From contig OZ076409.1 of the NCBI GenBank assembly GCA_964187785.1, positions 53,632,001 to 53,696,000 on the forward strand: 64,000 nt of DNA. Reading direction: 5' to 3'. The stretch is from Amphiscolops sp. MND2022. Its lineage: Eukaryota. How positions within the stretch are numbered: position 1 is the stretch's first letter; each line of letters opens with the position of its first letter. The notes beneath the pieces were generated by a model, which was not told the origin of the DNA, made no database searches, and saw only the letters and a program-made list of their open reading frames with translations. Both the position numbers and the translations under genes were made by a program. Below, piece by piece: positions 24,901-30,900 of the stretch.

Positions 24901-27900
24901 TTGTCAAAAACATTCCGTTGTAACATTAAAACGTTTTCCGTTCTGTAGGTTTCTTACGACGTACTGTGAAGTGCGTTGGTTGATTAAAAATGGTTTTTCT
25001 TATTTAGATTTCTGGTGCATGCGCTCTGCGCTGGTGATTTTTATGTACGAGTTTAATCAAGAAAAGAAATATAATTCTCAATTCACTTTCGATTTACTTT
25101 CTGAAGTAATTACGTGAGTTCGATCAGAATAATTATAAGTCTCAATTATAGTCTATTTTGTGAACTTTTAGTTCACTTCTTGTCTAATTTCTAATTCCAA
25201 ATCTAAAAGTAGTCTCGTACTTAAAATTTTCGCGACTGTGCCTTCCTACACTTCAACAAAGTTCGTCTCAGGTGTGAGTTCGGATGGAAGGACTTTATTT
25301 CTACGACCCGGGAGAAAAGTGTATTTTGGTCTATGAATATGTAAATTGAATCTTTCTTTATTTAGATTAAAGTTGTAATAAATGTCACTCATACAAAAGC
25401 AAAGTGCACAAATCAGCATGAATAGAAAGAAAATAATTAAATCAAATCTAAAATCTATCTTTGAATAATACGAGTTAAGTTAGTTAGAAAGAAAGTAAGT
25501 TATTAAGTTGTTTTTGTGTTTTACCAGATCAAGAGGTGAAGCCTCTTTATAAGATGCAGCGATAGCTTGCAAGGTGTTTATAGTCCACTAATTGTCACGG
25601 ACTGAAAAGAGAGCTACTTGCTTCTCTTGATTAAAGAACAACAGATTGTTGTACTGGTTTTATAGAGTGCTATACAGCTACTCTTTGTCTCAGATTGAGA
25701 ACTGTTCGACTTGAAGAGTCAAACAAAAACTAAGTTATTTAAGTCTCTTATAACCCAGCTAAAGCTGTGGTTCTTGGTTTAGAGTCAGTATATCTACCAG
25801 ACTTTGGTTTAGAGTCTACTATAAAGCAGAGACTATTCAATCTTTGTTAAACAAAGACGGTATGATAGCTTCTGTTCGAAGTCAAAAGTCAATTAGAACT
25901 CCAACGTAAGAGAAGATTTGCTTTAACGATGAAAGCAGATTTTTGTTTTGTTTTAGATTGAAAATATTATAAGACTAAGACTTAGCTTGCCTTTACTTGA
26001 AGGCAGATTTGAAAATAGTTAAAGATTTAAATTGCTTCAATATTGAAGCAGAGTTAAAATGCTTAAGACTTAACTTGTTTTGGCTCGAAAATATTCTAAG
26101 ATAAAATTGCTTCACTCGAAGCAGAGTTGGAAATCGTCTAAGACAAAATTGCTTTAACTAGAAAGCAGGCTTGACAAAAGTTTAAGATAAAATTGCTTCA
26201 CTTGAAGCAGAGTTGAAAATCGTCTAAGACAAAATTGCTTTAACTAGAAAGCAGGCTTAACAAAAGTTTAAGATAAAATTGCTTCACTTGAAGCAGAGTT
26301 GAAAATCGTCTAAGACAAAAATTGCTTTAACTAGAAAGCAGGCTTGACAAAAGTTTAAGATAAAATTGCTTCACTTGAAGCAGAGTTGAAAATCGTCTAA
26401 GACAAAAATTGCTTTAACTAGAAAGCAGGCTTGACAAAAGTTTAAGATAAAATTGCTTCACTTGAAGCAGAGTTGAAAATCGTTTAAGACAAAACTGAGC
26501 CAAAACTTGTAAAACTTTAAGAAGGTTTAAAACTTAGGCAAAAAGCACAAAGACTAAAATGAGTTAAAGTTAAAGTTAAGAAAAATATCTTAGAAAAATG
26601 AAAGCTCCAAAAAGAAAATTGAAATGGTTTAACTAACAAATGTTGCGCCGCGCTGAAGATGGGGATTGAACCCGTGAATGGAGATTGTAGAGTTGAAGAT
26701 GAGTGATTTATCAATTTAGTATTTTGCCAAAGGAAGAGCTCTGAGAGTTGAAAATTTGGTCTGCTTTTATACTAAATTTGACCGCTTCGTCAACCAATAA
26801 AATTGAATCACTGCTGTGATTGGTTGACGAGCATGACGTCATATGACGTCAAGTCATATGATCTGACAAACGAGATCATTTTGTATGTGTATTTCGTGGG
26901 CGAAGCGTCCACGAGAAAATGATGTCATTTGACGTCATGACCAAATATGGAATGTAACCAGCGTCGCTGGACAAAGGGAGTGAACACGTTCGAGCGTGTT
27001 CAGAATTCAGAGCTGAGTGAGAAAATAACAAAGATAAAACTGCGTAAGTCACAAAAGATAAAACTACATGTTACAAGTTTTGAGTTTATTTCTTTTTGGG
27101 TTATCGTAGTAAGTTTCTTTCTTTTTATTTGCCATAAGTCGCACACGACATCTCACCCGGGTTTCAAGATTGAAGAAATTGTAACGGGGGTACACAGGTT
27201 GTTGGCGTTCATGTTGATTCTTCTAGGTTAACTTCGATGAACATAGTGTCATTCAGAATGAATGGGGAGTTGCTTTTGAAGAGCTGGCTGTGTGGGATCA
27301 GGAAGGGGAAGCATATGCTCGGGTTCCCATAGCTTGTACAAGGTCGTATAAAACAAGCTGAATTTTGGTTATCTTTCGGGTCTACTATTTTAGTACAGGT
27401 ATCATTAGGCTCACTCAAATTGATTACATTAATTCGGAAGATTAATTTGAAAGGCCAAGAGAGAATTGGGTCGAACTCGCCAGGAAGGATGTTAATAACT
27501 AGTGAAGCACTCTCTCCAGTAGCAGGAGAGCATCCATAAGGATAGAGTTTCATATCAAAGCGATACCCATGAGTTGATGTGTAGAATGGAGGGCTGTGAA
27601 AATTACAAGGTATTTTTGGGTGCGGGTCGACGCCTTTTTGCCTTTCTAGTTCTGCAGCCTTTGCGTTATCAAACATAAGGCTGAAGGAGTTAATTCTCCA
27701 GATTAGCTTTTTGTCTCGTCCACAATCAATGCTGTGAATACGATCATAGAGATCCATTGTTAGGCGTTTGAGGGGTTTCAGTTCAGCAAGTCGTCGTTGT
27801 ATATCTGTTGATTCGGGTTCGGTTGAAGAAGGGGTAAGAAGAGGAGTATTTACAGGTTGTTCAACAGTAGATGTTATTATCTTCTTTTGAAGGTCTTCGA

Positions 27901-30900
27901 CGACAATTTGGAGTTGCTGAATGGTTCTGTCCTGTTGTCTTCGTAGGTTCTTTTCATGCTCAAGTTGCTCGAAGAGGTTTGCAACTTGTAATTGTGTTGC
28001 GTGTAGGTATTGAGCATGTTTAAGATTGCTGAGAGGGAACTTGTTAACGAGCATTTTCATCTGGGTAAGGTCGTCGTTGGTGCATGTAGGTTGGCTGAGA
28101 TTTGTTATTTGATTTTGTAGTGTTGTAATTTCATTTTCCATGGCGGCTAATCTAAGGTTGAGTTCTTCCAATAATTGTTTTTTCATTTTGTTTTCAAATG
28201 AAAGCAGAGATAGCCCGAAGGGGTACTGATAGTCTCTGGTTTTTAAGAACGGTGTTTTCAATAGTAAATTCTTGTCTTTTTGAGTCCCAGAAAATAATTC
28301 TCCACTGATTGACTTCTTCTTTGAGAGTATAGTTGAGGTTATAATGAAATCTGGGATTTCTGGTTATCGAGTATTTTTGAGCAGCTTCTTCGCTTCTTTT
28401 TTGCTTTTCTAAAGCTTGTTTCAATGAGTATTGTGTTTTCTTCTTTTTGATACTACCGTTGAAGATAAAAGTATTAGGGTGATTTGGAGGAGTAATAGTA
28501 CCTTCTAAGAGAGTTTGATTAAGTGGTTGTTGAGGGATAGGAGATTCAGCTGAGGTGATATCAAACATAGGAAAATCAAGTATGTCCTTCTCTGTTAGAG
28601 TGTCTTTTGAAAGAAGAAGTTCCAGATCTGATGAAAGAGAGGTGTGGTCGGTCATTTCTTGCTAAAAATAGAATACAAAAGTTAAATTGGTGATATTGTG
28701 TCTAAACGATTAGTTACTGGCAGACGATTTATGACGGGGTAGATGTGTTCAGAAGCATCTTGATTGTCGGTACTGAATGTTGTCATGGGAATATCTTTTG
28801 TAGTAGGATTGAACATTGAATGGAAGATCGAAACCATAAAAAGATTATAAGTTGCTGATAGTAGAATTTTACCAAATCCAACAGATGCTCCAGTAAGTCG
28901 GTGTATTTCAAAGGCTCTGACAATAGTTACTGTCACATCAATAATTAGTTTTATAAAAAGGAAAACTGCAAACCAAATACCACATTTTTCTAGCCAATAT
29001 CCAATTGTGCCAAATGTTTGTCTAAATTTGCTTTCGAAGTAACCAGGAGATATCATGTTATCAACAAAGAAGTCCATTTTGGGTGCGTAGTATGTATATC
29101 CTTCAGGTCCTTTCTTTGATTGTGAAGGAACAATGAGTTTTCTTGTGAATTTTTGTAAAGCATTCTTCGATGCAGAACTCATGAGGATGTTGTCCCAAAA
29201 TTCAGTTAGTTGGCCTTTCGTGTACATTCCAGCGTTGATTGATTGAGGAAACTGATCCCTTGTGAACGGTGCCACATCTTTTGGAGAGAAAATAGCAGGT
29301 CTATCTCTATGTGTGATTTGTGGTGTTAGTGAAAACCAAGAGTTCTTGTCGTCCATATCCATTTGAAAAAGGTTTTTAATTTGATCCGAACAGTTCTGAG
29401 GCATCGCATCAGGTAAAGTTTGCCTCGTGATGGGATCTACAAATTTGATTTGTCCTTTGTAAAATATGGGTATCTTATCGTAGCACTCGTTCATCGTGTG
29501 TAGAGGTGATCTGACTAGTGGACAAGAATAAAGCCATGCAAGGCTTCCATCAGTTTCTAAGAACATTGATCTGTTTCCAGTCAACATATATCCAGCTAGT
29601 CTTGAGTTCTCAAGTGAAAGCATCAGAATGGTGAGTATGTGCGATCTTTCTTGTTCACACTGGTTTTTTAAAAGGTGAAGTTCTGAGGCTTTGAGTGCTC
29701 TGGAGCTCTCAAAGAAAAGGTAGTCCAGTTTAGTTCCTTGTTGTAATTCGTAGTCCATATTCAACCATGTTCCATAATATGGGTCTGAATGGTAGTTACT
29801 AGCAACCCAGAGTTTACTATGGCCTGGGTCATCTCTTTCTTGATCATTAGGGGAATAGCGCATCATGTGAACTCTGTCCTCTTGTTGGATCATATTTCGT
29901 CCAGTTTTCATGTCAAATCCACCATAAAGGATAGCAACAAACAAAGATTCATAGGTTGTAGGATATACATCTGATGGTTTATTACAAAGTTTTTGTGGTC
30001 TGTTTTTGACTTCAAAGAGATATTTGTTTTCTGAATCGTTCTTGCTAACAATATAGTATTGATCGTCATTTTTGATCATATTTACGTACTCCTCTTTCAG
30101 TACGGTGAGAATACAATTGTCTGGATTATCCCATACATAAGCATATGGGTCAAGAGAAGTGCTGTCACATCCCAGTTCGTCTAGCTTGCAGGGTAGAGGT
30201 TGTCCATTTCTATTCATTATAGTCCCGTCTCTGAGTTTGACGTTCAGAGTAATATCTTGGATGTGAGTTTCAAAAGTGTCTTTTTCAATCCATTCAAAAC
30301 CATCACATTCATTTTTGAATGTGTCGTCTGCATCGCCATTCCATCTAAGATGTTGTTCAATTACTCCTTTTTTCATTATAATCTGATGATTTAGTAGAGT
30401 TATTGGTGATCCTTCAGCTGCGAGTCTGCATTGTGCAGGCGATAAATCGAGATATGAGGTAATAGTCTTTTGTTTGATATCAATACTGGAGTGGTCGTGC
30501 ATTCCACAATAGAATCTGTTCCTTTGATGTTTGACACTGCATATTGTAGCGTTGATCTCTGTTCGAAAATGCTTTGTGTACATCTTGACTTTGGCGTGGC
30601 TCATGTCTATGTTCTCAGGAGCCACGTTACAAGGTTTGACTTGGTTAAGAGAGTAGAGATTGTTTTCTGACATTTCACTGCAATCGTAATGTGAGACTGT
30701 GACTGTAGGTGCGATATCATCCAGTATGGGCTGCTTCTTGTCGGCGTAGATGAGATTTATTGAAAGCATCAAAATGAAAATAACAAAATATTTACAGTAT
30801 ATCTTTTCACTATCCATTATCAACTAATGAAAACGGTACTCCGAAAATACTATAATGGGTTTAGGAATAGAAAGGTAGACTTGCTAACCTTGAGATGAAG

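Follow-up and report, generated by a model that had tools for sequence, protein, structure and literature searches.

A RING-less TRAF-like gene, likely captured from a host gene, is a standing accessory gene of an env-bearing Ty3/gypsy retrotransposon family in Amphiscolops

The DNA analyzed here is a stretch of 64,000 nucleotides from Amphiscolops sp. MND2022 (assembly GCA_964187785.1, contig OZ076409.1, positions 53,632,001 to 53,696,000 of the forward strand), which we call the window and in whose coordinates positions are given. It contains a complete env-bearing Ty3/gypsy long terminal repeat (LTR) element of 19.2 kb at 24965-44213 on the minus strand, and all features of the element described below lie on that strand. 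The 5' LTR (42028-44213) and the 3' LTR (24965-27150) are both 2186 bp long and 100% identical, have TG...CA ends and are flanked by a GTAC target-site duplication, to which no strand applies (24961-24964 on the left, 44214-44217 on the right). Between the LTRs, the order is gag, pol, four small open reading frames (ORFs), five TATA-containing repeats, env, ORF-X and a TRAF-like gene. The TRAF-like gene is the last gene of the element, and its stop codon is 58 nt from the 3' LTR. The original prediction, made from the letters of the window, had placed this gene between env and the 3' LTR; it is indeed the last gene before the LTR, but ORF-X (28194-28655, 153 aa) intervenes after env. Our analysis shows that this Ty3/gypsy family, which was active recently, has the TRAF-like ORF as a standing accessory gene maintained by purifying selection.

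From ATG to stop, the TRAF-like gene is an intact, intronless ORF of 325 aa at 27209-28186. The prediction had given its limits as 27209..28261; the gene is real, but position 28261 is an in-frame TTG. The stop-to-stop frame extends to 28363, with 59 extra codons that contain no methionine and overlap ORF-X in another frame. Pfam matched the ORF to PF21355 (TRAF-mep_MATH, E=1.4e-22) and PF22486 (E=2.4e-20), and all 28 PDB sequence matches were TRAFs (best E=1e-14). An AlphaFold model built from a 70-row alignment (pLDDT 87.4, pTM 0.58) has long N-terminal helices at aa 2-106 (27869-28183; coiled coil), a disordered linker at aa 109-121, a stalk helix at aa 124-155 (27722-27817) that leads into the next domain and is the TRAF-N equivalent, and a TRAF-C/MATH domain at aa 160-322 (27221-27709). 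A single-sequence model (pLDDT 42.9) was set aside. The best Foldseek matches of the model were TRAF4, TRAF1, TRAF5 and TRAF2 (E 3e-15 to 7e-15), and its best viral fold matches were iridovirus TRAFs. Pfam found no RING or zinc finger in the ORF, whose first 120 residues include a single cysteine. The protein therefore has the TRAF-C/MATH beta-sandwich of the TRAF-domain proteins, preceded by a predicted TRAF-N coiled coil (helices 2-106 and 124-155), and lacks the N-terminal RING and TRAF zinc fingers of the canonical E3-type TRAFs (TRAF2-6). The profile searches and structure prediction, which had been proposed as checks, agree with the PDB and Foldseek matches on the predicted organization: an intact, intronless ORF with a coiled coil and TRAF-C but no RING or zinc finger.

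We then turned to other copies in the same genome. The search for the TRAF ORF scored 150 of 518 candidates, all 150 were 76-100% identical to the window ORF, and the gene therefore has at least 150 copies. A stop codon fell inside the matched part of 21 of the 150, and 46 of the 47 top-scoring loci that were fetched were full-length without a stop, in a sample biased to young copies. Selection was measured as the NG86 ratio of nonsynonymous to synonymous divergence (dN/dS) between subfamilies of family A, the family of the window element. For the TRAF gene, the ratio was 0.08-0.16 in each of six pairs (dS 0.33-0.59, Fisher P<=7e-25), compared with 0.03-0.11 for gag, pol and env and 0.03-0.13 for ORF-X in the same pairs. 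The pairs used leave aside L171 (broken tail), L173-L174 (dS 0.005, ratio 3.4, P=0.32), the saturated cross-family comparisons and the TRAF genes of B1 and B2, which are identical. The TRAF gene of family B, defined below, gave a dN/dS of 0.05 with dS near saturation. Within the protein, the MATH domain is the most constrained (pooled pN/pS 0.07, from pairs that are not independent), and the coiled-coil parts range from 0.12 to 0.34. In older copies, the TRAF gene decays together with the rest of the element. Neither restriction to this copy nor neutral evolution, the two findings that had been named as speaking against the prediction, was obtained. In one pair, dS was 0.33 for the TRAF gene but 0.02-0.11 for the other genes, which suggests that the TRAF module is exchanged between subfamilies.

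The likely donor of the gene is a host gene, H1 (L070; C3 ~90.866-90.870 Mb). H1 is single-copy in the host genome, and there is no homologue of env, pol or ORF-X in the sequence stretch around it. Its model, predicted from sequence, has three GT-AG introns of 805, 595 and 407 nt and encodes 493 aa. The window protein is 44% identical to H1 over the stalk and MATH domain and 38% identical over the N-terminal part, and the window ORF spans two H1 exon junctions without an intron. The other LTR-borne types are all nearer to H1 than to family A (family B, 36% versus 28%; family D, 25-27% versus 20-23%). The proposed phylogenetic comparison, a tree of 56 rows, united H1, its relatives and all mobile-borne copies in one clade (support 99/98) that is separate from canonical TRAFs and from two other host genes. 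Branching order within the clade is unsettled, and a single LTR capture was not rejected when A, B, D and the outside E-type rows were constrained together (p-AU 0.151). A second tree was run in quick mode with six rows dropped, four added and the H1 row replaced. The view that the gene was captured from the host and belongs to the element is supported.

Two features of H1 bear on how the gene was acquired. The last H1 intron is, by comparison among homologues, old, since the called ORFs of two outside relatives stop at that site and the H1-clade gene of the family C repeats described below has an intron there. Its absence from LTR copies thus fits passage through spliced RNA, at capture or later. 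In addition, H1 itself appears to be already RING-less. Its start has one degenerate cysteine motif, no RING pattern was found upstream of it, a genome-wide zf-TRAF scan gave one match only, on C10, and the H1 relative P0122 begins at the same methionine as the H1 model. If so, the element lost only the finger remnant and the C-terminal tail, and a dominant negative was not created by the element deleting a RING. The prediction had argued from a deleted RING to a dominant negative, which is difficult to maintain when the donor and its relatives appear RING-less and when the naturally RING-less TRAF1 acts both negatively and positively, according to PMC11117997. H1, its relatives and family C also have in common with the window protein a helix-break motif of the KFPL..L....YLH..QLQV type (aa 49-68, 27983-28042; pN/pS 0.12), a candidate partner-binding site.

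Other TRAF-like host genes were seen in the genome. L074/L075 (C2 ~79.07 Mb) and L143 (C2 ~90.14 Mb) are divergent MATH genes that group in the tree, and L079 (C10 ~42.09 Mb) is the zf-TRAF gene, for which no MATH exon was found within 50 kb around it. Just upstream of H1 (L070:9648 to L071:9055; L072) are an LTR element with a 1805-aa ORF, presumably BEL/Pao-like, and a gene cluster that we take to be Polinton-like.

Families B, D and F also have the ORF-X and TRAF slot. Family B, with dozens of copies, has near-identical LTRs and the same gag-pol-env-ORF-X-TRAF order as family A; its TRAF protein has 250 aa and is 28% identical to the window protein. In family D, we saw gag, pol, env, ORF-X and a TRAF gene whose product is 20-23% identical to that of the window. 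Type F, known here from the ORF-X and TRAF pair alone, has a TRAF protein that is ~27% identical, and about 84 of the 150 rows of the ORF-X search are of D/F type. In the reverse transcriptase (RT), family A shares 88-91% identity with family B and 77% with family D, so that the TRAF gene, at 21-28% identity between families, is far more diverged. In each of the families examined (A, B, D and F), ORF-X comes before the TRAF gene. The N-terminal half of ORF-X is low-complexity and a C-terminal part of ~70 aa is conserved; searches of Pfam and the ESM Atlas gave no Pfam match and no usable Atlas match. TRAF-like proteins of families D and F, and of some outside relatives, begin with a PAM2-like motif (L141, L172, L174, L170, L173, P0067 and P0102), for which Pfam E values were 0.008-0.1 in three of the seven, all below the cut-off; the motif is absent from the window protein. 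In another assembly, the protein P0162 combines an env N-terminus, 48% identical to the window env, with a TRAF C-terminus of yet another type, which suggests that the env-TRAF cassette exists beyond this genome.

The arrangement of these genes also hints at how they may be expressed. The five repeats 5' of env (31157-31830) contain one TATAAATA box each and are candidate internal promoters; internal env promoters are known in Tor elements, according to PMC4402516. A splice-acceptor-like site (28662-28681), recognized in the sequence as a pyrimidine tract followed by AG, lies directly 5' of the ORF-X ATG. Similar candidate sites precede ORF-X in families A and B, and in B also the TRAF ATG. 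In all six loci of families D and F, the ORF-X stop and the TRAF start overlap in the sequence ATGA; in family A, 3-7 nt separate the two. Such spacing is compatible with translational coupling on a subgenomic RNA transcribed from the TATA repeats.

TRAF domains trimerize via TRAF-N and TRAF-C and bind receptor tails at three hot spots, which in TRAF2 numbering include R393, Y395, F410, S453-S455, F456 and C469 (PMC6125299). We scored these positions in columns mapped through canonical-type rows, not through TRAF2 itself. We added D399, S467 and G468 of TRAF2, which we take to be groove positions as well. The window protein keeps 2 of the 11 groove positions of TRAF1/2/3/5, or three if the serine loop is read ungapped, and thus falls outside that receptor-binding group; H1 keeps 5 of 11. 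Compared with H1, the window protein agrees at 6 of 11 positions and differs at 5, including an edge-strand glycine. The groove is invariant in all three family-A subfamilies. Family C keeps 8 of the 11 H1 residues, and families B, D and F diverge from the H1 groove more than the window protein does. The glycine is kept in H1, in family C and in P0064, the gene of a virus-like contig described below, and is replaced in the A, B, D, F and E-type rows; two outside relatives of B retain it. Given the remodeled groove and the lost glycine, a receptor-tail decoy of the TRAF2/3 kind is unlikely, and the original proposal of a decoy for TNFR, TLR or RLR signaling is not supported by the two retained positions.

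Genes of the H1 clade also occur on two other kinds of carrier. Family C is a multi-copy palindromic repeat of ~17 kb with arms that are 99.7% identical and a TRAF gene, in either orientation, in the central spacer (for example L166:1260 through L131 to L165:402, C1 ~78.424-78.441 Mb; also L130-L140 and L145-L148). Its TRAF intron is kept in 12 of the 15 loci in which the junction pattern was found, and constraint on the gene is weaker (dN/dS 0.45-0.58, P<0.01 in three of four pairs). The arm ORFs scanned gave no Pfam match above the cut-off. Of the small family-C ORFs, we take one to be PC4-like, and a 207-aa ORF has an HxH motif that we presume, without confirmation, to be HUH-like; this ORF matched only unnamed eukaryotic clusters in the ESM Atlas. 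The other carrier is a gene-dense metagenome contig (L169:1-17785) with the intronless gene P0064, which groups with H1 at modest support. This contig, intronless throughout, also encodes an Hsp70, a protein kinase, a DNase I-like ORF and an inhibitor of apoptosis protein (IAP) with BIR and RING domains, and has three RING-less MATH genes in all, P0064 and two more. It appears to be a fragment of a large DNA virus with an animal host, although no virion or polymerase gene was found in the 17.8 kb seen. P0064 had been a candidate host-like gene and was dropped as such because its contig is virus-like. A metagenome scan with P0063 gave 169 pattern matches and a viral-contig scan with P0039 gave seven, none of which was confirmed.

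We give about even weight to the reading that the window protein, as an accessory protein, enters mixed assemblies with host TRAFs and dampens signaling for cell death or defence. The gene would have been captured from an already RING-less H1 and would have lost its introns by passage through spliced RNA. Its protein would be made from a subgenomic env/ORF-X RNA, with translation coupled to ORF-X in families A, D and F and served by its own splice acceptor in B, and would trimerize like other TRAFs. Because the coiled-coil motif and stalk are conserved, co-assembly with H1 or another host TRAF is favored; because the peptide groove is altered, mixed trimers may fail to relay, or may misroute, the H1-dependent signal. 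The death or defence response would then be blunted wherever cells express the element together with its fusogenic Env. The possible link to cell survival draws on TRAF1, on the IAP neighbor of P0064 and on planarians, in which TRAF knock-down raises cell death (PMC7586133).

Several points weigh against this reading. The divergence of the groove could equally mean a new, non-immune ligand. The evidence for the H1 model consists of splice signals and homology alone, and a RING exon could, strictly speaking, still lie farther upstream, past the inserted elements. ORF111L of ISKNV, a RING-bearing protein and the only viral TRAF that has been studied well, promotes apoptosis (PMC3352826). A scan of the host genome found 36 TIR-domain and 2 BIR matches, but no Rel-homology (NF-kB/NFAT) domain, in a search that had no positive control, and no TNFR repeat above the cut-off. 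An NF-kB read-out may therefore be the wrong assay, and the downstream pathway is left unnamed. Family B is without the N-terminal motif region, and D and F have diverged very far, which makes it uncertain that one mechanism serves all families.

Other explanations account for parts of the same evidence. The window protein might act as an extra, signal-independent H1-like scaffold that, as a TRAF1-like protein, recruits for example an IAP and a RING-bearing TRAF and pushes a survival or proliferation pathway. An apparently RING-less donor, a copy that retains coiled coil, motif, stalk and MATH, the positive roles of TRAF1 (PMC11117997), the presence of BIR matches and a zf-TRAF gene in the host, the pairing of a TRAF gene with an IAP on the virus-like contig and the H1-like groove of family C would all suit such a scaffold. 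The sequence of a pure mimic should follow that of the host gene, however, and the window protein has left H1 at nearly half of the groove positions, the glycine among them, with B, D and F further away; we regard this as a minority possibility. The protein could instead serve the life cycle of the element itself, in particle assembly or trafficking, in binding of Env or Gag tails or in RNA handling, with no action on host signaling. Linkage and probable co-expression with env and ORF-X, a groove remodeled differently in each family and the PAM2-like start, a hint of RNA-related partners, in D, F and some outside relatives point that way. Yet the same host gene is also present on unrelated DNA-type carriers, whose examined DNA contains no Env or Gag, and the motif in common with H1 is conserved; we regard this role, too, as a minority possibility.

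Nor do the copies look like cargo retained for the benefit of the host, as an extra dose of TRAF. They are many, and frames are mostly intact among the top-scoring ones, but constraint between replicating subfamilies matches that on gag, pol and env, and older copies decay with the whole element, as expected under element-level selection; we consider this explanation very improbable. We give almost no credence to the view that a recent capture left the gene as a neutral passenger. The identical LTRs show that the window copy is very young, so that its intactness alone proves nothing. The low dN/dS at substantial dS refutes neutrality unless the codon alignments are wrong, and the TRAF gene persists in families with up to 23% divergence in RT.

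The range of carriers prompts a broader and more tentative idea, which we think possible without expecting it to hold. H1 may have been captured independently by at least three unrelated mobile DNAs (env-bearing LTR elements, the 17-kb palindromic repeat and a large DNA virus). It would then be the hub of an anti-parasite pathway for cell death or defence that is undescribed in this lineage of animals and may operate without NF-kB, with the retroelement copies as its evolved antagonists. If repeated captures do reflect function, they would indicate a previously unknown host defence node. Accessory genes that act on host signaling are typical of complex retroviruses and large DNA viruses, but hardly any have been documented for the LTR retrotransposons of invertebrates. 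In this one genome, the donor, the route of capture, the selection and the repeated captures are all visible, and retrotransposon tinkering with apoptosis or immunity becomes directly testable with one host gene and one cargo protein.

TRAF cargo in gypsy elements is already known, although the original prediction had not recognized it as a gene of LTR retrotransposons. The planarian Burro/GYPSM1 elements are giant gypsy-like LTR elements that carry MATH_TRAF_C, in Dugesia tigrina as a separate accessory ORF; the authors of the review that describes them propose meddling with apoptosis and ubiquitination and call for experimental confirmation (PMC6431247). Compared by published description rather than by sequence, both are gypsy-like, with an env related to mononegavirus fusion proteins and MATH_TRAF_C cargo. 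Burro/GYPSM1 has a polyprotein of ~5000 aa, env between gag and pol, BIR, BCL2 and ankyrin domains and more than 30 kb. In contrast, the window element has separate gag, pol and env of 421, 1819 and 711 aa in the ordinary order within 19.2 kb, and its TRAF gene, which follows env and ORF-X, has retained a long coiled coil. The six main ORFs of the element gave no match to BIR, BCL2 or ankyrin domains when scanned. The window element thus differs from Burro in architecture but shares its MATH_TRAF_C cargo. What is new here is the donor, the selection and the apparent triple capture. Our literature search, which lay outside most subscription papers and the repeat databases, turned up no published TRAF gene 3' of env for which a donor has been identified. 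The main text of a survey of 1512 env-bearing elements, whose supplements may bear on the point, nowhere mentions TRAF, MATH or macro (PMC13524379). Relative to env-bearing Ty3/gypsy elements of the errantivirus-like and Tor kinds, as described in PMC13524379 and PMC4402516, the window element has extra ORFs on both sides of env.

Two proteins invite comparison with the window protein. Vertebrate TRAF1 also has a coiled coil and TRAF-C without a RING and was the second Foldseek match, but the window clade stands apart from canonical TRAFs, so TRAF1 is not its orthologue, and the hot spots that bind PxQxE/T are not kept (PMC6125299 and PMC11117997). ISKNV ORF111L, from a megalocytivirus, is a TRAF homologue encoded by a virus, in this case a fish DNA virus; unlike the window protein, it has a RING, and it binds TRADD and promotes caspase-8 apoptosis (PMC3352826). 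Iridovirus TRAFs are 18-21% identical to the window protein in fold alignments.

The remaining parts of the element are consistent with its classification, which is based on structural features and Pfam domains. The gag gene (40391-41656, 421 aa) matches PF03732 (E=4.6e-5), and pol (34884-40343, 1819 aa from its ATG) has protease, RT, RNase H and integrase in the Ty3/gypsy order. A primer-binding-site-like 18-mer starting with TGG (42007-42024) lies 3 nt past the 5' LTR and is identical in family B; ARAGORN found no tRNA in the window. Together with the LTR ends and target-site duplication, these features identify a Ty3/gypsy element, and an intact env 3' of pol (28682-30817, 711 aa; a Monjiviricetes-type fusion glycoprotein, PF24664 E=1.1e-39; dN/dS 0.02-0.10) places it among the env-bearing, errantivirus-like elements. 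Between protease and RT, pol contains a Macro-like segment (39135-39314; Pfam E=0.019, below the cut-off). The surrounding part of pol is 35-44% identical in families B and D, and the segment is possibly a second counter-defence module, acting on ADP-ribose. Four small ORFs of 132, 108, 72 and 71 aa lie between pol and env (31911-33341). Three of the four have homologues in family B, and the 132-aa ORF, the only one scanned, had no Pfam match; the 72-, 108- and 132-aa ORFs are partly paralogous. The 3' LTR contains 87-bp tandem repeats at ~26058-26581. Outside the element, we noted a set of regions at 45473-47100, 52251-54125, 57730-58245, 59364-59717 and 19564-19865, which we take to be exons of a probable RNA-binding protein gene and two non-LTR RT-like ORFs. 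The same set of regions includes a 15-bp tandem array and a short inverted repeat.

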